Assembly (NCBI GenBank): GCA_041572575.1
Contig: JBFFSH010000065.1
Coordinates: forward strand, 1 to 14,746
DNA length: 14,746 bases
Direction: 5' to 3'
Source: Thermodesulfobacteriota bacterium
GTDB taxonomy: Bacteria; Desulfobacterota_D; UBA1144; Nemesobacterales; N074bin48
Shown: piece after piece, positions 4,164 to 14,746 of the stretch
Layout: each line of letters begins with the position of its first letter
Numbering within the stretch: the stretch's first letter is position 1
Translations under genes and position numbers: made by a program
Notes under the pieces: generated by a model
Told to the model about the DNA's origin: nothing
Databases searched by the model: none
The model's input: only the letters and a program-made list of their open reading frames with translations

Positions 4164-5888
4164 GTGGTTAGGCAATATACTTTAATTAAATTATTAATTA
4201 TTTTCACCCTTTTGGCTTTATCTGCCCAGAGTAGAGCTGCAGATAAATCAGAAGAGCTGTTTGATAACGCCAATAGCTTATATAAGACCATTTTAAAAGA
4301 TACTTCCAAAGCTCAAAATGTAGAAATTTGGCAAAAACTTGCCGATGCTTTTTATGGCATTTTCAAATCATATAACAATAGCCAAAAAGCCCCTACTGCG
4401 CTTTTTATTTCAGGAAAGCTCTACGAAAAGATGGGATATAATTTCAATTCAAAGGATTATCTTAAAAAATCCATAGATGTTTCAAGAGAGCTTACTATAT
4501 TTTACCCAAAAAGTAACTACGCAGATGACGCACAGATAAGGATTGCCAGGATTACTGAGGGTTGGGACAAAACTCAGGCTTTTATTGAGTATGACAAAGT
4601 GCTCAATGAGTTTGCGGGCGGCGATATGGTTTATGCCGCTACAAAGAAAGTAAAACAACTCGACAAGTACAAGCCAAAGGGCTATTCGTATTTAAAAAAT
4701 AAGAGAAATACAACAATTGTAAGCCAGAGTGAAATTAAAAACACCAAGGGCCTTTCAAAAGTAACTAATATCAGAAATTTCTCACTTAGAGATTACACCA
4801 GAGTTGTCATAGATATGGAAGGTCAAAAACGATATAAATCTCACCTATTAAAACCAGACCCAAAACATGGCAAACCACCAAGGCTTTTTGTTGATATTGA
4901 CGGAACCTATATTGATCCTAATCTAAAGATTCCATCACTCGAAGCCGGCCTTTTGGAACAAATCAGGTTTGGAAGAAATACGGACAATAAAGTAAGGGTA
5001 GTACTGGATATAAATAGCTTTGAAAAATATAATGTATTTCACCTCCAAAATCCTTTCAGGATAGTGATGGATATATATGGTGATAAGAAAAGCTCACCAA
5101 CTACTGCAATAGCTCATTCACATACACAATCGGATATTAAATCTAACTCTAATCGAAATACTGAAAGCCTGGCTGGTATTCTTGGCTTAAAAATAAGAAG
5201 AGTGGTAATAGACCCTGGCCATGGTGGGCATGATCCAGGCGCAATCGGTCCTTCTGGTTTAAAAGAAAAGGATGTTAACCTAAAAATTGCAAAAGCTCTT
5301 AAAGCCAAACTACAAAAAGACGGCAAGAAATATGGAATAGAGCATGTATCATTAACAAGAGATAATGATAAATTCATAAGACTTGAAGACAGAACAACCA
5401 TTGCTCAGAAAAAAGACGCCGATCTTTTTATATCTATTCACTGCAATGCAGCAAAAAGCAAGAATGCCTATGGTATCGAAACATATATACTCAGTCTCAC
5501 AAAAGACAAACGAGCTCTTGAAGTTGCAGCAAGAGAAAATGCTCTTTCAACTCAGGATATAAGCGATATGGAAAACATCATCAAAAAGATTGTGAACAAT
5601 GCCAAAATAGACGAATCAAAAGAACTTGCATCACATGTGCAAAACTCAATAATTACAAAAGTGACCAAGAAATACAGCAATGTGAAAAACAAGGGAGTAA
5701 AAAAAGCTCCATTCATGGTTCTAATTGGCGCTGATGTACCAAGCATACTTGTTGAATCTTCTTTTATTACCAATCCGAGAGAAGAAAAGAGGCTTAAAAA
5801 TAATAACTATATAGACAAAATTGCTGACGGCATATTTGCTGGTGTGGTAGAATATTCTAAAGGAATGCAAACAGCATATGCCAAATAG
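4164..5888 (+). CDS. N-acetylmuramoyl-L-alanine amidase (signal peptide, TPR-like helical region, AMIN domain, Amidase_3), AmiC-like
   Basis: Signal peptide ending SRA-A; TPR-like YPKSNYADDAQIRIA; AMIN-like YTRVVID, PPRLFVDI, VRVVLDI and PFRIVMDI; zinc-amidase motifs IDPGHGGHDPGA, EKDVNL, SIHCNA and LVESSFI. GTG start is uncertain. Confidence 0.93.
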   Translation: MVRQYTLIKLLIIFTLLALSAQSRAADKSEELFDNANSLYKTILKDTSKAQNVEIWQKLADAFYGIFKSYNNSQKAPTALFISGKLYEKMGYNFNSKDYLKKSIDVSRELTIFYPKSNYADDAQIRIARITEGWDKTQAFIEYDKVLNEFAGGDMVYAATKKVKQLDKYKPKGYSYLKNKRNTTIVSQSEIKNTKGLSKVTNIRNFSLRDYTRVVIDMEGQKRYKSHLLKPDPKHGKPPRLFVDIDGTYIDPNLKIPSLEAGLLEQIRFGRNTDNKVRVVLDINSFEKYNVFHLQNPFRIVMDIYGDKKSSPTTAIAHSHTQSDIKSNSNRNTESLAGILGLKIRRVVIDPGHGGHDPGAIGPSGLKEKDVNLKIAKALKAKLQKDGKKYGIEHVSLTRDNDKFIRLEDRTTIAQKKDADLFISIHCNAAKSKNAYGIETYILSLTKDKRALEVAARENALSTQDISDMENIIKKIVNNAKIDESKELASHVQNSIITKVTKKYSNVKNKGVKKAPFMVLIGADVPSILVESSFITNPREEKRLKNNNYIDKIADGIFAGVVEYSKGMQTAYAK

Positions 5889-7616
5889 ATGTCAAAGAAC
5901 GCAGATATAGCAAACATATTCAGCCGTATTGCATCATCGCTGCAGATACTGGATGAAAACCGTTTTAAGATTCGTGCCTACCAGAATGCTTCGAGAAACA
6001 TATCAGAGCTTTCAGAAGATTTAGAAAAGCTCGCTAAATCAGGTTCACTTTCTTCGATACCGGGAGTGGGAAAAGACCTGGCTCTAAAAATTGAAGAATA
6101 CCTGTCTACAGGAAAGATTGAGTATTATGAAAAAATTCAAAAGGAAGTCCCCTCCTCTCTTGTAGACCTTCTTAGAATCCAGAGTATGGGTCCAAAGACA
6201 CTTTCACTTCTGTATAAAGAGTTTGGTGTTAAAAACCTTACTGATCTTGAGAAAGTTCTTAAAACCGAGGAGCTTGAAAAGATTAAGGGGATGGGCAAAA
6301 AAAAGATCGAGGATTTACACAAGGGAATTGAGCTTATGAAAAAAGGCCTGGAAAGGCTAAATATAGGCATTGCCTTTCCAATTGCCCAATCCATAGTGAA
6401 CTTGATCGAGAACATTCAAGGAACAAAAAAGACCACATTTGCGGGTTCACTCAGAAGAATGAAGGAAACAATTGGTGATATAGATATACTTACAAGCACA
6501 GAGGACGGAGAAAAAGTTATAGATGAATTTGTAAAGCTTCCTTTTGTGACCGAAGTTCTTGCATCGGGGGATACCAAAGGCAGTGTAATCATAGAAAACG
6601 ATGTACAGGTAGACCTGAGAGTAGTTGGAGAAGACTCTTACGGAGCAGCTCTGCTGTATTTTACAGGCTCTAAGGAACATAATGTAAAGCTTAGAACAAT
6701 GGCTGTGAAAAGAGGGCTGAGTATTAATGAATATGGGATTTACGAGGGTGATAAAAAACTTGCTGGACGTACTGAAAAAGAATTATATGAAGTTCTAGGG
6801 CTTCCCCTGTTTCCACCCGAAATCAGGGAGGACAGAGGTGAGTTTGATGCTGCGGCAAGCAAATCTTTACCAAATCTTATAAGTTTTCAGGATATAAGAG
6901 GAGATATACATTGCCATTCCAACTGGAGTGATGGGAAGAGTACCATTGAGGAGATGGCACGAGCTGCAAAAAAAATGGGTTATGAATATATTGCCATTAC
7001 AGATCATTCCCCTGCTTCACGAATTGCTAATGGGCTGGATATAAAAAGGCTTAAACAAAAATTTAAAGAGATAGAAGAAGTAAGAAAAAAAGTAAAAGAC
7101 ATAAAAATACTTTCAGGAACAGAGGTTGATATACTAAGCGACGGTTCACTTGATTATCCCGATAAAATACTAAAAGACCTGGATGTGGTTGTAGCATCTG
7201 TTCACAGCGGCTTTAAGATGGAAAAGAGTGCAATGACAAAAAGAATTATAAGAGCTATAAAAAACCCCTATGTACATATTCTGGGCCATCCTACAGGAAG
7301 ACTTATTAATGAGAGAGAACCCTATAATGTAGACTTAGAAGAAGTATTCAAAATCACTAAACAATATGGCAAAGCAGTTGAGCTTAATGCATCATACATG
7401 AGGCTTGATCTAAACGATATACACAGCAGAAGAGCTAAAGACCTAGGTATTCCAATTAGTATAAACACAGATGCCCATCATACTGACCAGCTTCAGTTTA
7501 TGTTATACGGCATAGGTACTGCCAGACGCGGATGGGTTGAGAAAAATGATGTTATAAACTGCATGAGTTACAGCAAACTAACAAAGTGGCTCAAACAGGT
7601 ACGGGATCATACTTAG
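5889..7616 (+). CDS. polX: DNA polymerase X with C-terminal PHP exonuclease domain
   Basis: HhH motifs IPGVG and IKGMG; GSLRRMKETIGDIDIL (DxD) and VDLRVV (third Asp); YFTGSKEHN; PHP motifs HCHS, TDHS, GTEVDI, GHPTGR and NTDAH. The ATG directly follows the amidase TAG. Confidence 0.96.
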   Translation: MSKNADIANIFSRIASSLQILDENRFKIRAYQNASRNISELSEDLEKLAKSGSLSSIPGVGKDLALKIEEYLSTGKIEYYEKIQKEVPSSLVDLLRIQSMGPKTLSLLYKEFGVKNLTDLEKVLKTEELEKIKGMGKKKIEDLHKGIELMKKGLERLNIGIAFPIAQSIVNLIENIQGTKKTTFAGSLRRMKETIGDIDILTSTEDGEKVIDEFVKLPFVTEVLASGDTKGSVIIENDVQVDLRVVGEDSYGAALLYFTGSKEHNVKLRTMAVKRGLSINEYGIYEGDKKLAGRTEKELYEVLGLPLFPPEIREDRGEFDAAASKSLPNLISFQDIRGDIHCHSNWSDGKSTIEEMARAAKKMGYEYIAITDHSPASRIANGLDIKRLKQKFKEIEEVRKKVKDIKILSGTEVDILSDGSLDYPDKILKDLDVVVASVHSGFKMEKSAMTKRIIRAIKNPYVHILGHPTGRLINEREPYNVDLEEVFKITKQYGKAVELNASYMRLDLNDIHSRRAKDLGIPISINTDAHHTDQLQFMLYGIGTARRGWVEKNDVINCMSYSKLTKWLKQVRDHT

Positions 7617-7633
7617 TTAACAAGGACTTTTAT

Positions 7634-9649
7634 ATGTCATCAATACCGTTTAAAGATGCTAAAGAAAAGGCTAATAAATTAAGACAGGAAATAAGCCTGC
7701 ATGACAGGCTCTACTATATAGAAAACCAGCCATCTATATCAGATTCTGAATATGATGCATTAATGAGAGAACTTAGAAGTATAGAAGAGGAACATCCGGA
7801 GCTAATCACCCCCGACTCCCCTACCAGGAGAGTAAGTGGTACGGTAGCAGATGGATTTGATAATATTGATCATATTGTGCCAATGATAAGTATAGACAAT
7901 ATTCAAAACGAAGACGATGCTTATGATTTTGACAAAAGGGTAAAAAAATATTTGGAGTTGGACGAGAACATTGATATTGAGTATGTGTGTGAGCCAAAAT
8001 TTGATGGGGTATCCGCCTCTTTAACGTATGAAAATGGAATTCTTACAAAGGGCGCTACAAGGGGTGATGGCAGGAAAGGAGAGGATATAACCCAAAATCT
8101 AAAGACAATTAAAGCTATTCCACTTAGTTTAAATACCAACAATAAACAGCCAAAACTTATAGAAATAAGAGGTGAGGTTATTTATGCAAATGAAGATTTT
8201 GCAAAACTAAATAAACAATTGGCCGCAGAGGGAAAGCCGGTATATGCAAATGCGAGAAATACTGCATCCGGCTCATTGAGACAGCTTGACCCTAGCATAA
8301 CCGCCTCGAGACCACTTGATTTCTATGGCTGGGGAATAGGACATTCAGAAGGATTAAATGGTACAACAGAGTGGGAAGTTATTGAAAATATTAAAAAATG
8401 GGGTTTTAAGATCGATGCTAGAATAGCCAAGTTTGACAATATTTCAGGTGCAATCTCATATCATCACGAGATAGAAAACTCCAGGGACGACCTTCCCTAT
8501 GATGCAGATGGTGTTGTAATAAAAGTTAACGACAAGAAATATCAAAGAGAACTTGGATCGACTGCTAAATATCCAAGGTGGGCAGTTGCATATAAATTTA
8601 AACCACGGCAGGCAACCACAGTTGTAAATGATATTATTGTTCAGGTTGGAAGGATGGGGCTTATTACACCGCTTGCAAAAGTGCAGCCGGTTGTAATTGC
8701 CGGAGTTACCATAAGTAATGCCTCACTTCATACTGAAGACATCGTTATGCAAAAAGATGTTAGGAAGGGTGATACGGTTCTTATAGAAAGAGCGGGTGAT
8801 GTGATTCCTCAAATAGTAAAATCGATACCTGAGAAGAGAACCGGCAAAGAAAAGAAGTTTAAAATGCCATCTAATTGCCCTTCTTGTAAAACACCCATAG
8901 AAAAGGAAGGTGCATACTATTACTGCCCCAACCTTTCATGTCCGGATCAGATTAAGGGACGCATAGAACATATGGCATCAAGAAGAGCCTTTGATATAGT
9001 TGGTCTTGGTGAAAAGATTGTAGTTCAGTTCCTAGAACAAGGAGTAATAAAAGACCCGTCAGATATATTTTATCTTAAAAAGGAAAATATAATTAATCTT
9101 GAAAGGTTTGCTGATAAGTCTACTGAAAACCTGATAAATGAAATTGAGAAAAATAAAAAGATACCTTTCGACAGATTTTTAAACGCTATAAGTATAAGGC
9201 ATGTTGGCCAGAGGATGTCTCAGGTTATAGCTGAAAATTTTGGAGACTTAGATTCACTTATGAATGCAAGTGTACAAGAGTTAGAGCAAATAGATTCAGT
9301 AGGCCCGGAAATAGCTAAAAGCATCGTAAATTTCTTTAGTATTGAGAGTAATGTTAATTCGATAAACAAGATGCTCGGTGGCGGCGTTGAAATAATTTAT
9401 TCACAAAAAGCAAAGGGTGATAAATTAGCCGGTAAAACCTTTGTACTCACAGGCACTTTAGAAAACTACACTAGAGACGAAGCAAAGGAAATCATAGAAA
9501 ATGAAGGAGGCAAGGTCACTTCATCAGTCACAAAAAGGACAAGTTATGTTATTGCTGGCGAGAGCCCTGGGTCAAAGTATGATAAGGCTATGAAACTCGA
9601 TATTCCCATCATAGATGAGAATGAATTTAAAGTGCTTATTGGTAAATAG
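7634..9649 (+). CDS. ligA: NAD-dependent DNA ligase (671 aa from ATG 7634)
   Basis: EPKFDG adenylation motif, TRGDG, EIRGEV, DGVVIK, AYKF, C4 zinc finger (CPSC...CPNLSC), HhH region and BRCT (GKTFVLTG). AAGGA SD at 7622-7626. Confidence 0.97.
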   Translation: MSSIPFKDAKEKANKLRQEISLHDRLYYIENQPSISDSEYDALMRELRSIEEEHPELITPDSPTRRVSGTVADGFDNIDHIVPMISIDNIQNEDDAYDFDKRVKKYLELDENIDIEYVCEPKFDGVSASLTYENGILTKGATRGDGRKGEDITQNLKTIKAIPLSLNTNNKQPKLIEIRGEVIYANEDFAKLNKQLAAEGKPVYANARNTASGSLRQLDPSITASRPLDFYGWGIGHSEGLNGTTEWEVIENIKKWGFKIDARIAKFDNISGAISYHHEIENSRDDLPYDADGVVIKVNDKKYQRELGSTAKYPRWAVAYKFKPRQATTVVNDIIVQVGRMGLITPLAKVQPVVIAGVTISNASLHTEDIVMQKDVRKGDTVLIERAGDVIPQIVKSIPEKRTGKEKKFKMPSNCPSCKTPIEKEGAYYYCPNLSCPDQIKGRIEHMASRRAFDIVGLGEKIVVQFLEQGVIKDPSDIFYLKKENIINLERFADKSTENLINEIEKNKKIPFDRFLNAISIRHVGQRMSQVIAENFGDLDSLMNASVQELEQIDSVGPEIAKSIVNFFSIESNVNSINKMLGGGVEIIYSQKAKGDKLAGKTFVLTGTLENYTRDEAKEIIENEGGKVTSSVTKRTSYVIAGESPGSKYDKAMKLDIPIIDENEFKVLIGK

Positions 9650-9696
9650 TGGATTGTTTAAAGAATCTATAACCAAAATAAAGATATTAATAGATA

Positions 9697-10509
9697 ATGG
9701 TACAATATTTTATTGAGTTAAATCCCATATATCAAGCACTCATTGCAACTTGCTTCACCTGGTTTCTGACTGCACTAGGTGCATCTGTAGTATTTGTAAC
9801 AAAGAGTATTAACAAAAAACTATTAGACTTTTCTTTAGGTCTTTCAGGCGGAGTAATGATTGCTGCAAGCGTCTGGTCTCTTCTTATTCCTTCAATAGAT
9901 ATGTCAGAATCAAGGTATGAACTGCCGTGGGTACCCGCAGCAGTTGGTTTTCTTTTTGGCGCAGCTTTTATAAGAGTAGCAGATAAAATTATTCCCCACC
10001 TTCACCTTGGCTTCCCGCTTGCAGAAGCTGAAGGCTTAAAGACTCACTGGAGAAGAAACATCTTGCTTGTCCTTGCAATTACTTTGCACAATATACCCGA
10101 AGGTCTAGCAGTAGGTGTAGCATTTGGCGCCCTAGCCACGGGATTTGAAGGCGCCACTCTTGCATCTGCAGTAACCCTTGCCCTTGGAATAGGAATACAG
10201 AATATGCCTGAGGGTCTGGCAATATCAATGCCTCTTAGAAGGGATGGTATGTCCAGACTTAAAAGCTTTTACTACGGACAACTTTCTGCAGTAGTTGAGC
10301 CGATTGCAGCATGTATCGGAGCCGCTGCGGTGCTATACATCAACCCCATACTCCCCTACGCACTGGGATTTGCCGCAGGCGCTATGATATTTGTGGTTAT
10401 TGAAGAACTGGTACCTGAATCTCAACGCTCTGGAAACACTGATTTAGCAACATCCGGCACTATACTGGGTTTTATACTCATGATGATTCTGGACATACAG
10501 TTTGGATAA
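9697..10509 (+). CDS. ZIP family divalent metal transporter (GufA/ZupT-like)
   Basis: Multiple hydrophobic helices, TM4/TM5 signatures HNIPEG and QNMPEG, plus GGVMIAAS, AAGAMIFVVIEELVPES and a His-containing loop PHLH. Confidence 0.93.
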   Translation: MVQYFIELNPIYQALIATCFTWFLTALGASVVFVTKSINKKLLDFSLGLSGGVMIAASVWSLLIPSIDMSESRYELPWVPAAVGFLFGAAFIRVADKIIPHLHLGFPLAEAEGLKTHWRRNILLVLAITLHNIPEGLAVGVAFGALATGFEGATLASAVTLALGIGIQNMPEGLAISMPLRRDGMSRLKSFYYGQLSAVVEPIAACIGAAAVLYINPILPYALGFAAGAMIFVVIEELVPESQRSGNTDLATSGTILGFILMMILDIQFG

Positions 10510-10545: not shown

Positions 10546-13176
10546 CTATTTCCAGACCTTAAACCAGAGAAGGTTGTTAAACTCCTTCACACTAATAGTC
10601 TCTGCTGTAAGTATCGGAAATAGATAAACAAATGCTGATAGTGAAAGGAAGAAATATAATAGTACAATCATTTTACCCTTGGTTGATATGCTCCAGATCT
10701 TGTCTATAAAATATGCAACTAGGATGTATAAAAACATAAGAGTAGGCAGAAAGTGATATATAAATATTACTTTTTTTGGTGAAAGTATCCACGGAAGCCA
10801 TGAAATAAACATTCCCGATATTACAAATATTAATGGATATGACCTGGTTCTAATGATCTGAATAATTGCTGCTATTATTGCTGCAATACCAGTCCACCAT
10901 ATGACAGGATTACCAATCGTATATATGTATTCACGCAGCCTTCCTACCTTTTCAAAATAAAGCAGTAAAGGCTTATAAACCAGAATCCATGACCACCAGG
11001 CGGACTGATAATTATGGGGATTTTTTACACTTTCATGATATCTTAACATCGATTTATGAAGCGCAATAAATTCAGAAAATGACTGCTTGTAAATAAAAAA
11101 CGGGATGTAGCTTAATATATAGATAACAATAGGTATAAATACTAAAGATAAAGTGAGTAGTAAAAGTTTTTGACTAGCGGGCTTTATTTCTATCTTCTTA
11201 TCTTTATTTTTATATAAATACGATATGAACAAACAAATGAGAATAAAAAGATTAAATGAAAGAGCAGTCCATTTTACAGATACTGCAAGCCCTAAGAATA
11301 TACCTGAAAGATAAAGAAATTTATTATTTTCTTTCCTTAAATATTTAACAGTAAACAGGCAGGCCGAAATTAGAAATACGAAAAGGAATATATCGACCAT
11401 TGCAATTCGGCTTAGCACAAATGGGAAAGGATCAAGCAGATATAATATTGCTGAAAACATACCAATGTTCACGCTATTGAAAATATTTCTTGCAAGAAGA
11501 AATATCAACATTGCTGCAGCAGCACCAAACAAGACCTGAAATATCCGCCAGGCAAATGGGCTGTCACCGAATACAAGAATTCCAAGACTTATGATCTCTT
11601 TTCCAAGAGGCGGGTGTGTCCATTCAAACTCGTTTATACCTGGATAACTGTAATCCTTGCCCCAAGCATACAAATTACCCTTTGTAATCTCCTGTGCAGT
11701 GAATGCATAATAGACTTCATCAAACATAAATTTATCAGGATATCCCACATCATTTATTCTGACTAAAAAACCCACGATAACAGCTGATACCAGGATGACC
11801 GTCTTTATATTTCTACTTATAAGATTATTTTTATATTTAACACAGATATGTTTAACAAATTTCACTAAATCAGATACTGCTCCAGATTTTTTCAGATAAT
11901 CAATCAGCATGAAAATAAACACCAATATGAGAATGCAACCTAGAAAATATATCAATGGAGTAAAGAAATTATGTGTAAATGTGGTGTAATCTGTAATTAG
12001 CCTTTTATAAGCCCAGAACATCTGAAAAACATAAATCCCGCTTAGAACAGTCAGATAAATAATATATTCTTTATATCTTATTATTAAGAAAGAAAGCAGC
12101 ACTATGGGCATAAGCATATGCCTTTCATGTGCGCGTGTAACAAACAGATAGGTTGCAAATGAGATCAGAAACACGGTTTCAAAGACTATGACAAAAAGAT
12201 TATTTCTATCTGTAAGTGCTGTTTTTCTTAAATTATTAAAACATCCGATGAGAATAGATATAAAGAAAATTAAAAATAATACTGTACCCCAGGCTTGATA
12301 TGTAAGGTTTAGAAATAGAGTTTGATCACTCTTCCACATTGCAAACATCCCCCAGAAATTTACAGCATGCATAGATGCAAATTGATGCCTTCCATACGAG
12401 CCTATAAACCTTTCATATATAAAGACTGCGGGCTTTGTAAAAACATCTGTAATAATGTCTATATTTTGATATACAAATGGAAGAGCAATAATAAAGCATG
12501 TTAAAACAAATGCTGAACCGAGTTTAGCTATACCAATTCCAAACTGCTTTTTTAATACAGGATTGTTTAAGTTGCAGCTAAACACATAAACAATCATTAA
12601 AATTAAAGGTGAAAATACTATTGCCTGTGGCTTAATTAGAAATGATATTGTACAAAATACACCAGCAAGGAATATTCTTTTATTAATCAGAAATAATATT
12701 CCGGCAGCAAGTGGAAGAGCATTGAGCGTATCCACCTGTCCCCAATGGGTAGAATTAGATAATACTGCCGGATTTAGGAAAAACAGTATTGCTGCAAATA
12801 TCGCATATTCTTTTTTTACAAAATTACTAGCTGTTATATATATCAATACTGCAATTAAAAGGTCAGATATATTAGCCGGCAGTTTGTATAAAATCTCATA
12901 GGGAACGTCTTTAAGGTACAGGTTTATCTTAGCAATTAATGCTAATATAAATATATATCCCGGCATATAGTCACAAAAGTACTCAGAATAGAAATTGCTG
13001 AATCCTACTTCTAATGCACCCTCTCCCCATTTTTTAAAGATGATGAGATCAGGATAAAAAGTCAGAAACTGAGATAAGTAAAGTCTAAGAATAAATCCGA
13101 AAAAAAGTAGAGTAATAAATACAATTAAGAGTTTATTGTAATTTCGTTTACCGGACATTATGGAAATAATACTCAT
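10546..13176 (-). CDS. Polytopic membrane protein fusing two GT-C glycosyltransferases: N-terminal ALG6/8- or Gpi18-like domain (about aa 1-430) and C-terminal PMT/GT39 protein O-mannosyltransferase-like domain (about aa 455-876)
   Basis: N-half: PD-x6-W, CDYMPGY, YKLP, NPA-x6-WGQVD, KPQ, NFW and RAHERH. C-half: FDEVYY (DE at aa 486-487), HPPLGK, AWR, SRIAMVD, VKW, HNYQSAWWSW, GNPVIWW and FIYHFLP. Start is ATG 13176 or 13158. Confidence 0.88.
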   Translation of the reverse strand: MSIISIMSGKRNYNKLLIVFITLLFFGFILRLYLSQFLTFYPDLIIFKKWGEGALEVGFSNFYSEYFCDYMPGYIFILALIAKINLYLKDVPYEILYKLPANISDLLIAVLIYITASNFVKKEYAIFAAILFFLNPAVLSNSTHWGQVDTLNALPLAAGILFLINKRIFLAGVFCTISFLIKPQAIVFSPLILMIVYVFSCNLNNPVLKKQFGIGIAKLGSAFVLTCFIIALPFVYQNIDIITDVFTKPAVFIYERFIGSYGRHQFASMHAVNFWGMFAMWKSDQTLFLNLTYQAWGTVLFLIFFISILIGCFNNLRKTALTDRNNLFVIVFETVFLISFATYLFVTRAHERHMLMPIVLLSFLIIRYKEYIIYLTVLSGIYVFQMFWAYKRLITDYTTFTHNFFTPLIYFLGCILILVFIFMLIDYLKKSGAVSDLVKFVKHICVKYKNNLISRNIKTVILVSAVIVGFLVRINDVGYPDKFMFDEVYYAFTAQEITKGNLYAWGKDYSYPGINEFEWTHPPLGKEIISLGILVFGDSPFAWRIFQVLFGAAAAMLIFLLARNIFNSVNIGMFSAILYLLDPFPFVLSRIAMVDIFLFVFLISACLFTVKYLRKENNKFLYLSGIFLGLAVSVKWTALSFNLFILICLFISYLYKNKDKKIEIKPASQKLLLLTLSLVFIPIVIYILSYIPFFIYKQSFSEFIALHKSMLRYHESVKNPHNYQSAWWSWILVYKPLLLYFEKVGRLREYIYTIGNPVIWWTGIAAIIAAIIQIIRTRSYPLIFVISGMFISWLPWILSPKKVIFIYHFLPTLMFLYILVAYFIDKIWSISTKGKMIVLLYFFLSLSAFVYLFPILTAETISVKEFNNLLWFKVWK

Positions 13177-13187
13177 AAAGAAGATAT

Positions 13188-13224
13188 AAAAAAGGGGAGA
13201 TAATTATTATCAATTATCTCCCCT
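13188..13224 (-). terminator. Rho-independent terminator downstream of the lipoprotein gene
   Basis: Perfect 12-bp stem GGGGAGATAATT (13194-13205) / AATTATCTCCCC (13212-13223), 6-nt loop, followed on the minus strand by T6 (13193-13188). Confidence 0.88.
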
Positions 13225-13269
13225 GTGTTTAATTAATTGTTAGTTATATATTGTTGTTATGCTTATTAC

Positions 13270-14406
13270 CTAAGGAGGAGGAGTCGGACCATCAGAGGGG
13301 TTGTCACTCGGGCCATCCGAAGGACTGTCGCTGGGGCCATCCGAAGGACTGTCGCTGGGGCTATCTGATGGGCTGTCGCTGGGGCTATCTGATGGGCTGT
13401 CACTTGGGCCGTCCGAAGGACTGTCGCTTGGGCTATCTGAAGGACTGTCACTCGGGCTATCTGATGGGCTGTCACTCGGGCCATCCGAAGGACTGTCGCT
13501 GGGGCTATCTGATGGGCTGTCGCTAGGGCTGTCTGAAGGGTCATCATTTAGCACTTCACAGTCTGTATTTACTTCGGCACCCTCATCGGTTGATATATCA
13601 CCCTGAGCTCCCTCTATAATACAATCAGTCCCCTCTATGTCTACTGAAGAGTTATCATCTGCGTCTACACCGTTTTCATCACTGATAATTTCTACTATAT
13701 CTCCATTTATATCCACATCGGAGTCATCATTTGCATCAATCCCATCCTCTTCTGAGTCGCATAATACCTCATTAGTATTAATAGATACTGAAGATTCATC
13801 TTCAGTCTTAATACAATTTGAGCATTGCTCTAGAGTAATCATGTTAGAATTGATGATTAAATTACAGTCATTTTCAGCTTTTATACAATCGCCACCTTGC
13901 CCGTTTATATGTATATCACGATTTATCTGTGTAACTCCACCTTCACACTGTATACCAATATCTAACTGATTGAGAAGCACCAGGTCATTATTAAAATCAA
14001 GCGTAACATTATATGTGATTACATTATTTTCGGGAATAATCACATCTGTAAATATGCTCTGTCCGTCGAATCTGAATTCAAAAGTTACAAGCCCCGAAGT
14101 AGAAACTATGAAATTACCATCACTGTTTGTAACAGTTGATTGTACTAAAACTCCGTCTTTGAAAACATTTACAAGTACACCAGCAGATTGAGCATTTAAT
14201 TCCTTTAAAAATGAGAGTTTATCTAATATAGAGGATAATATTGTTCTATTTTGTTTCTTTACCTCTTTTGAAATCAATATTCCCTCAACTTTTCCACTAA
14301 CAACACTGTTATTCAGTTCAGAGTCACTTGTTCCTCCACAGGCTGTAAATATTAAAGATAAGCAAAATATGGATACAACAACTACAGATATTTTAGTTCT
14401 ATGCAT
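13270..14406 (-). CDS. Acidic surface/periplasmic lipoprotein: beta-sandwich-like region, 24-aa beta-helix-like repeats and a C-terminal (xPSD)21 tail
   Basis: Signal peptide with lipobox IFTA-C (Cys codon 14340-14338) followed by GGTSDS. ATG 14406 has AGGATGGTG upstream (alternative ATG 14421). Repeats are listed separately. Confidence 0.85.
   Translation of the reverse strand: MHRTKISVVVVSIFCLSLIFTACGGTSDSELNNSVVSGKVEGILISKEVKKQNRTILSSILDKLSFLKELNAQSAGVLVNVFKDGVLVQSTVTNSDGNFIVSTSGLVTFEFRFDGQSIFTDVIIPENNVITYNVTLDFNNDLVLLNQLDIGIQCEGGVTQINRDIHINGQGGDCIKAENDCNLIINSNMITLEQCSNCIKTEDESSVSINTNEVLCDSEEDGIDANDDSDVDINGDIVEIISDENGVDADDNSSVDIEGTDCIIEGAQGDISTDEGAEVNTDCEVLNDDPSDSPSDSPSDSPSDSPSDGPSDSPSDSPSDSPSDSPSDSPSDGPSDSPSDSPSDSPSDSPSDSPSDGPSDSPSDGPSDNPSDGPTPPP
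13291..13542 (-). repeat. Coding tandem repeat: 21 x 12 nt encoding [S/G/N/D]-P-S-D, with 24-nt and 72-nt higher-order periodicity
   Basis: 252 nt equals exactly 21 units: 15 SPSD, 4 GPSD (units 6, 12, 18, 20), 1 DPSD and 1 NPSD. The invariant Ser alternates TCN/AGY codons in every unit. Confidence 0.97.
13558..13893 (-). repeat. Four to five degenerate 24-aa repeats, probable parallel beta-helix
   Basis: GDCIKAENDCNLIINSNMITLEQC / SNCIKTEDESSVSINTNEVLCDSE / EDGIDANDDSDVDINGDIVEIISD / ENGVDADDNSSVDIEGTDCIIEGA / QGDISTDEGAEVNTDC. Confidence 0.7.
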
Positions 14407-14472
14407 TACTAAGGTCACCATCCTACTATAGTATTAAATAAATTATATGAGATGCTAATAAGAAGTCAACTC

Positions 14473-14746
14473 TCACGAATTTAGAATTTTTCTCAAATTC
14501 CAGGACTCAGCAAACATTTTTAAAATTACACTAATATTTGCTCCCGACTGACTGCCTTTTAATCTTGGATAATGATTTACGGCAATTTCTTTAATACCAT
14601 AACCCTTATTAAGTAGTCTTATAATAAACTCTGTACTAAAAAGAGCACCATCTGAGATTATTGGTTTTATTTGTTGATATGCCTGAGTGGGAAACACCTT
14701 GAATGCGCAATCTATATCTCTTAGATTAAGACCGAACATAAGCTTA
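14473..14746 (-). CDS. Glycosyltransferase family 2, DPM1-like (polyprenyl-phosphate sugar synthase-like); C-terminal fragment, 5' end outside the window
   Basis: The frame is open to the window edge (AAG CTT ATG...). Motifs LRDIDCAFKVF, FSTE, IKEIAVNHYPR-x2-GSQSG and a C-terminal amphipathic helix are typical of DPM1-like GT2 enzymes. Confidence 0.85.
   Translation of the reverse strand, partial: KLMFGLNLRDIDCAFKVFPTQAYQQIKPIISDGALFSTEFIIRLLNKGYGIKEIAVNHYPRLKGSQSGANISVILKMFAESWNLRKILNS

Follow-up and report, generated by a model that had tools for sequence, protein, structure and literature searches.

Why a putative sugar-donor synthase, a Ser-rich lipoprotein and a double GT-C glycosyltransferase are encoded side by side, and what they act upon, is the question raised by one end of contig JBFFSH010000065.1 of a Thermodesulfobacteriota bacterium (contig C65 of genome G000), whose entire 14,746 nt were analysed and are called the window here. 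The three genes are co-oriented on the minus strand and closely spaced, with intergenic gaps of 51 nt (GT2/lipoprotein) and 93 nt (lipoprotein/GT-C), as a preliminary description of this DNA had reported. That description took them for a self-contained system in which donor synthesis, acceptor and transferase are encoded together. Our analysis favours a broader reading, to which we assign a probability of about 0.62: the locus is likely the core of a general protein O-glycosylation pathway, for which the Ser-rich lipoprotein is one likely acceptor among several. The relevant features are:

14473..14746, minus strand: 3' end (last 90 codons) of the gene for a 234-residue soluble GT2, predicted polyprenyl-phosphate sugar synthase (PF00535, 107 bits); its 5' part lies on contig C39, at the contig end
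14442..14469, minus strand: sigma-70-like site TTGACT-16-TATAAT, 11/12 positions matching, 5' of the lipoprotein gene
13270..14421, minus strand: 383-residue lipoprotein with signal peptide and Cys28, transthyretin/CnaB-like beta-sandwich, beta-helix and disordered xPSD tail
13291..13542, minus strand: tail of 21 (S/G/D/N)PSD units with 36 Ser in 84 residues, likely acceptor region
13187..13224, minus strand: intrinsic-terminator-like hairpin between lipoprotein and GT-C genes, 14-bp stem followed by a U run (-19.5 kcal/mol, z -4.1)
11872..13176, minus strand: module A of the GT-C protein (gene 10546..13176), residues 1-435, ALG6/ALG3/GPI-MT-I/PimE-like GT-C by fold, profile and conserved residues
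10546..11823, minus strand: module B of the same protein, residues 452-876, GT39 protein O-glycosyltransferase without MIR domain; D486-E487 at 11716-11721

The GT-C gene encodes an 876-residue protein made of two GT-C modules joined by a Lys-rich linker of low confidence in the predicted model, which has an overall predicted local distance difference test score (pLDDT) of 87.7. The preliminary description had noted a PMT-like domain and proposed a hidden Markov model search as a check; in that search, module B exceeded the Pfam cut-offs for PMT (PF02366, 73 vs 22.7 bits) and PMT_4TMC (PF16192, 78.9 vs 32.4 bits), and PMT_2 passed too. A family profile was needed to reach solved structures, as a single-sequence phmmer search of the fused protein against the PDB returned 0 matches; a first scan of a collection of genome contigs with the single fused protein as query likewise found nothing. 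The family profile of module B aligns with yeast Pmt1 in both parts, including the DE motif and the second Asp. The predicted model of module B superimposes best on Pmt2 and Pmt4 (VIA Z of 38.1 and 37.8, root-mean-square deviation 2.3-2.5 over ~407 aligned residues), compared with VIA Z of 28.1 for AglB and 27.1 for ArnT, and Foldseek ranks 1-7 are all Pmt. D486 and E487, located where the preliminary description had placed them, are invariant in 32/32 aligned homologues, as are R590 and D595, and the invariance of D486 and D595 matches the essential acidic residues D74 and D176 described for MtPMT (PMC12331936). Since module B scores 134.5 of the 800 bits set for the actinobacterial Pmt equivalog (NF058602), it falls outside that orthologue group within GT39; the corresponding figure for the ArnT equivalog is 28.2 of 567 bits. 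PMT_4TMC matched only Corynebacterium glutamicum among 14 control genomes, and in G000 the window gene is the only one with this domain, next to three other PMT_2-type GT-C genes elsewhere in the genome. By profile and predicted fold, module B is thus GT39/PMT-type and not ArnT-like, and it very probably modifies proteins. The wider family is large, with 4,869 representatives at E<=1e-30 in a profile search, and GT39 is described as present in >3,800 bacterial genomes (PMC11727336).

The predicted model of module A is closest to ALG6, ALG3, GPI-MT-I and PimE (VIA Z of 28.7, 27.0, 25.1 and 21.5, respectively, over ~350-390 residues), and a profile match to GPI-MT-I was obtained with an E value of 1.6e-10. 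Its score for Pfam GT87 is 17.9 bits against a cut-off of 25, and 14/34 relatives match that family at E<=0.01. D43, K182 and the R348-x-H350-E351-R352 motif are invariant in 34/34 sequences. D43 is at the start of helix 41-57, the first after the first transmembrane helix, and the catalytic Asp of PimE, ALG6 and Gpi14 is described at that juxtamembrane position (PMC12041525, PMC12653191). D43, K182 and H350 also resemble D58, K195 and H321/H322 of PimE as described (PMC12041525), the equivalence being one of position and not of superposed structures. On these conserved residues module A looks catalytic. PimE is reported in a review to elongate protein O-mannose (PMC12757957), and by analogy there is an even chance that module A adds a second sugar to the one placed by module B.

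A competing explanation for module A, which we rate a serious contender at somewhat under even odds, is that it does not extend a protein glycan and is either a structural dimer partner of the PMT or a glycosyltransferase for a separate lipid acceptor, both of which would be compatible with the role proposed for module B. A preprint reports a Pmt/GT87-like heterodimer with a non-catalytic partner (mycobacterial ML2687c/Rv0051) and cites Paenibacillus fusions (bioRxiv 10.64898/2026.07.15.738315). Moreover, the closest structural relatives of module A all work on lipid-linked glycans, and fusions of GT2 to module A in G018, G023 and G056 link it no less to the donor enzyme than to module B. Such a scaffold or lipid-directed role fits poorly with the invariance of D43, K182 and H350 at PimE-like positions in all 34 sequences, and PimE itself, as reported in the review cited above, is an elongator of protein O-mannose.

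The missing part of the GT2 gene is found on contig C39, whose end shares an exact overlap of 141 nt with the window, the length most often seen between contig ends in the G000 assembly (43 cases); the genes that precede the GT2 there we take to encode an rRNA-methyltransferase-like and an M23-peptidase-like protein. The preliminary description had called the enzyme DPM1-like. That name fits the GT2 class and says little about mannose specificity: the best PDB sequence match is ArnC, ahead of GtrB-type sll0501 and DPMS, and no NCBIfam equivalog passes (71.2 of 500 bits for PgfS). A ManC-like gene is present on contig C69 of G000 with a score under its cut-off and, the GT2 sequence being undiagnostic, mannose as the transferred sugar is an evens guess. 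A GtrA gene (PF04138, 69 bits) lies on contig C2, 3' of an FG-GAP gene, in what looks like a remnant of an ancestral operon, and the three-component set of GT2, GtrA and GT-C is therefore complete in G000.

Gene order was surveyed across the order in 101 genomes, of which 81 are >=90% complete. The fusion profile was matched by 46/101, and 43 loci from 42 genomes were tallied, leaving out G088 and also G007, G011 and G035, where a more distant PMT is likewise accompanied by GT2 and GtrA genes but by no lipoprotein gene. The genes usually run GMC oxidoreductase, FG-GAP/ASPIC protein, GT2, A, B, GtrA. In 34/43 loci the GT2 adjoins the GT-C core or is fused to it, with no lipoprotein between, and GtrA is directly 3' of the PMT in 34/43. 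A lipoprotein gene lies directly upstream in four of the 43: in G000, G054, G016 (inferred by joining the GT2-lipoprotein and lipoprotein-PMT segments of two contig ends) and, as a second copy, G093. A contig end truncates three loci, and neither arrangement is seen in G005 and G097. Modules A and B are mostly separate genes, fused in G000, G028 and, frameshift aside, G054. That close relatives carry split, A+B-fused or GT2+A-fused versions supports the idea of three proteins working as one unit.

These operons vary in further details. The GT2-module A fusions of G018, G023 and G056 (L039:3264-5291, L046:10168-12213 and L059:5185-7257), together with the A-B fusions elsewhere, make two distinct fusions in one operon. 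In G054, a frameshift within an A-rich run breaks the fused A+B gene (L044:11921-14528), through either assembly error or phase variation. An exported FG-GAP/ASPIC (propeller-type) gene precedes GT2-A-B in most relatives (L056:6416-7969 and equivalents; in G000 at the end of C2, L176:7951-8928). In mycobacteria, a beta-propeller partner sits above the active site of the Pmt complex, and the FG-GAP/ASPIC protein may be an analogue of that partner or may equally belong with the GMC oxidoreductase.

The lipoprotein has a hydrophobic stretch at residues 11-29 and a lipobox Cys28 conserved in >=90% of 28 family members. A transthyretin/CnaB-like beta-sandwich (~39-152) is followed by a beta-helix (~154-293) in a model with a pLDDT of 74; the beta-helix matches Cthe_2159 with Z 12.1 and, best of all, a phage tail protein with Z 16.1, middling scores being common for this fold. 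The tail spans residues 294-377 with 21 xPSD units, and the 36 Ser in 84 residues counted in the preliminary description are exact. With 13/21 of its 12-nt units distinct, the repeat is a coding one that has drifted synonymously; 168 nt of the tail are missing from one public contig, either as a length variant or through assembly collapse. The family, which has no name, is present in 53/101 genomes of the order, frequently as multiple copies, and most members lie away from the PMT. A homologue search gave a single weak match in a large protein database and only low scores (<0.8) in Atlas. Matches to MSCRAMM SD repeats were rejected as low-complexity and far under the cut-off. In a G016 paralogue (L067:2025-3515), a 195-residue Cys/Glu-rich C-terminal extension replaces the Ser tail.

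Several lines of evidence suggest that the tail is an acceptor. In quick trees, the four linked PMT domains group in a single clade with a Shimodaira-Hasegawa-like approximate likelihood ratio test support of 99 (the clade includes P0002, of unknown genomic context), and the linked lipoproteins also form one clade with the same support of 99 (FastTree), so the lipoprotein-PMT link arose once. All four linked lipoproteins carry Ser/Thr-acidic tetrapeptide tails, with units that differ between SPSD and (S/T)EDG. Among family members with complete C-termini, after two open-ended rows were dropped and with the G093 copy outside the alignment, Ser/Thr tails were found in 3/3 linked copies, 8/19 unlinked copies from PMT-positive genomes and 0/4 copies from PMT-negative genomes. 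Small as these numbers are, retention of the tail in linked copies favours the tail as acceptor, and we consider it probable, judging from these sequences, that the SPSD tail is glycosylated.

Other acceptors are plausible as well. G000 encodes five more secreted proteins with long Pro/Thr tracts: a GH18 protein, two subtilases, a metallophosphatase and one unnamed. As Pfam PT (PF04886) missed even G000, a (Pro-Thr)4-Pro codon pattern was used across the order, and was found in 16/44 PMT_4TMC-positive vs 5/57 negative genomes, with a Fisher p of 0.001 that overstates the association because kin are not independent. Fused ALG6/PimE-like::PMT proteins of Woesebacteria (Patescibacteria), which are full-length homologues ~30% identical to the window protein, are also encoded near S/T/P-rich exported proteins. 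An S/T/P-rich open reading frame is among the next three downstream in 47/55 loci of this type (two non-Patescibacteria loci left out), and 106/340 downstream vs 1/234 upstream frames qualify. No adjacent GT2 or GtrA was found within 6 kb of these loci with the queries used. Separately, the phosphatase gene with the Pro/Thr linker, on contig C50 of G000 (L178), lies near further GT2 and PMT_2-type GT-C genes, which may form a second glycosylation neighbourhood.

The pathway that we propose would begin with the soluble GT2 loading a hexose or N-acetylhexosamine onto polyprenyl phosphate, after which GtrA, encoded on C2 here and directly 3' of the PMT in most relatives, would move the lipid-linked sugar across the inner membrane. 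Module B would then, by means of D486, put the first sugar on Ser/Thr residues of exported unstructured tails and linkers, among them the SPSD tail and the Pro/Thr linkers of the GH18 chitinase, the two subtilases and the phosphatase, and module A would most likely add the second sugar via D43, as PimE does after Pmt. The lipoprotein gene, bringing its own promoter-like site and terminator-like hairpin, would have become linked to the GT2/GT-C genes a single time, in one clade, and remained so, and read-through past the hairpin would make the lipoprotein abundant and the enzyme scarce. The membrane-anchored beta-helix protein would end up with a stiff tail that is coated with sugar and protected from proteases.

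A number of observations weigh against this reading. In module B, the loop-5 Arg kept in 31/32 homologues is Lys in the window protein, with the aromatic residue of R-x2-(Y/F) retained (compare R441/Y444 of MtPMT), and G000 is on a long branch (1.21) in the quick PMT tree. Module A is missing beside the PMT in G013, G041, G047, G016 and G005, so it is not always needed there. For the GT2, the best solved-structure match is the ArnC mentioned above. The lipoprotein link is a single evolutionary event, seen in 4/43 loci, and a tail is absent from 11/19 unlinked paralogues in PMT-positive genomes. Of the four linked tails, in which roughly a quarter to a half of the residues are acidic, three are very acidic and contain no Pro, whereas the acceptors read by MtPMT are described as Pro-rich (PMC12331936). 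The Pro-Thr pattern is lacking in 28/44 PMT-positive genomes, and the Woesebacteria neighbourhood is one conserved synteny block on the opposite strand.

The acidic, mostly Pro-free tails are also what lends weight to the best of the remaining alternatives, an unlikely one in our judgement, in which the PMT acts on the enzymes with Pro/Thr linkers and the lipoprotein gene, inserted as a separate transcription unit, encodes a bystander whose tail is an unmodified spacer or cation binder. The single origin of the link, the location of most family members elsewhere and the transcription signals point the same way. The sigma-70-like site is the best of 19 sites found, the total of sites is at chance level (shuffle mean 21.3), and the site is not clearly conserved, with a 10/12 match at the equivalent place in G016 and none in G054 or G093. 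A hairpin with a U run is present between lipoprotein and GT-C in all four linked loci (z of -2.6, -3.4 and -5.3 in the other three). With this hairpin and the promoter-like site, the locus need not be a single operon, and RNA-labelled public runs containing the stretch show neither expression nor co-transcription, since they hold contigs with flat depth and may contain DNA. What a bystander would not readily explain is that 4/4 linked copies keep a Ser/Thr repeat in spite of a changed unit, compared with 8/19 unlinked copies, and that the link lasted while the PMT-bearing proteins diverged to ~40% identity.

That the three genes exist to glycosylate the one lipoprotein, as the preliminary description supposed, appears improbable. 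The genes are indeed adjacent and co-oriented, the link has been kept across four families with a Ser/Thr tail every time, and the lipoprotein-linked A-B copy that G093 carries besides an ordinary operon could be a specialised one. However, absence of the lipoprotein from relatives that keep GT2 and GT-C adjacent had been named in advance as evidence that would overturn the idea, and this is largely what was found, the two being adjacent or fused with no lipoprotein between in 34/43 loci. In G000, moreover, a single PMT_4TMC gene is accompanied by the five other exported proteins with Pro/Thr linkers, and the flippase GtrA is encoded on another contig. The lipoprotein therefore stands as a plausible acceptor, linked to the PMT gene in one clade of four loci from four families, and not as the sole or dedicated one.

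LpxC and LpxB were found in 0/101 genomes of the order by searches that matched four lipid-A-making control genomes over the cut-off, and the LpxA C-terminal domain, searched for in G000, was not found there, so canonical lipid A appears absent and its modification by the GT-C is unlikely. Least probable of all, with a small chance left for a glycolipid other than lipid A, is a GT2/GtrA/GT-C cluster decorating a glycolipid or envelope polymer, ArnT- or GtrABC-like, instead of proteins: the GT2-GT-C-GtrA layout is that of three-component systems, the GT2 matches ArnC best and the cluster of the relatives lies among further GT-C and GT2 genes, but module B carries the PMT_4TMC domain that singles out C. 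glutamicum among the controls, is far from the ArnT equivalog and belongs to an order in which neither LpxC nor LpxB was found.

Judged from its gene content, the order seems to be a diderm lineage that lacks canonical lipid A. The preliminary description had inferred a low-GC diderm host, in agreement with the window GC of 0.25-0.47 and the two Omp85 genes of G000; among titled records, the nearest relatives of the fused protein carry the label Candidatus Dadabacteria or Thermodesulfobacteriota, which makes a dadabacterial host likely, and the public runs containing the stretch are seawater and marine-sediment samples. Among the papers listed by literature searches, to which subscription journals and bioRxiv supplements were not visible, none reported lipid A loss in Dadabacteria. 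A bolder possibility, which we hold to be rather unlikely, is that the conserved GT2-GT-C-PMT-GtrA cluster builds the main surface sugar coat on proteins, with abundant Ser/Thr-tailed lipoproteins as a mucin-like brush standing in for lipopolysaccharide, and that the initiating PMT with its fused elongating GT-C is a single-chain Pmt+PimE pathway in an outer-membrane bacterium.

The rest of the window contains genes of other kinds. A tyrosine integrase gene (641-1720) and a small membrane open reading frame (331-579) in the low-GC start of the contig likely mark the edge of a mobile element. Positions 4164-10509 hold, in one direction and converging on the glycosylation genes, an AMIN-domain amidase, a PolX-PHP protein, the NAD-dependent ligase LigA and a ZIP transporter; the position of PolX beside LigA suggests a repair pair. 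A scan of viral contigs for LigA gave no match and hence no taxonomic placement.

How does the locus compare with known systems? Actinobacterial Pmt (with Ppm1 and PimE), Cbes_1864 of Caldicellulosiruptor bescii and yeast Pmt1/2/4 share with module B the PMT + PMT_4TMC fold, the DE motif and the second Asp, and the bacterial enzymes likewise have no MIR domain. Bacterial GT39 systems use a lipid-linked donor made by a GT2 and Pro/Ser/Thr-rich exported acceptors, as proposed here, and the C. bescii GT39, whose gene is near that of its acceptor celA, has been shown to glycosylate proteins (PMC6151902). Unlike the known bacterial Pmt enzymes, the window protein is fused to a second GT-C, is clustered with a GT2 (and in relatives with GtrA) and belongs to a diderm host. 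GT39-type protein O-glycosylation, known from fungi, animals, Actinobacteria and one Firmicute, would thus extend to a diderm lineage seemingly without lipid A; in the literature searched, with the same limits of coverage as above, no report of this glycosylation system in Dadabacteria was found.

The Paenibacillus GT87::GT39 fusion described in the preprint (bioRxiv 10.64898/2026.07.15.738315) has the same two-module order. A Paenibacillus GT39 protein, P0107, which may not be the one cited there, aligns to both halves of the window protein with 28% and 30% identity. The window fusion differs in being compact (876 residues, no large inserts) and split into two genes in most relatives, and its module A, in contrast to ML2687c as the preprint describes it, retains likely catalytic residues. 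The 876-residue chain, with one initiating-type and one elongating-type GT-C, and the natural 36-Ser reporter make a compact test kit with which one could decide between a second catalyst and a mere scaffold as the role of the GT87-like partner in bacterial PMT systems, the question raised by that 2026 preprint.

The closest parallel in organisation is the Streptococcus mutans cnm-pgfS-pgfM1-pgfE-pgfM2 cluster, likewise with a GT2 and two GT-C enzymes, in which cnm is described as lying ahead of the core pgf genes, with a leaky terminator separating them (PMC5856776); in streptococci, Ser/Thr tails, those of lipoproteins included, have been shown to be O-glycosylated in a GT-C-dependent way (PMC12041528). 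Both have a non-core gene for an acceptor, here a likely one, beside a general machine, with a terminator or, here, a terminator-like hairpin between. As PgfM1/M2 are described as YfhO-domain proteins carrying GalNAc and the GT2 here is distant from PgfS (71 of 500 bits), the locus seems to work alike without being a member of that group. The novelty implied by the preliminary description is accordingly reduced, with GT39 outside Actinobacteria (PMC6151902), streptococcal O-glycosylation of Ser/Thr tails (PMC12041528) and a GT87::GT39 fusion (10.64898/2026.07.15.738315) already in print: the type of system is known, and the locus is neither self-contained nor categorically new.

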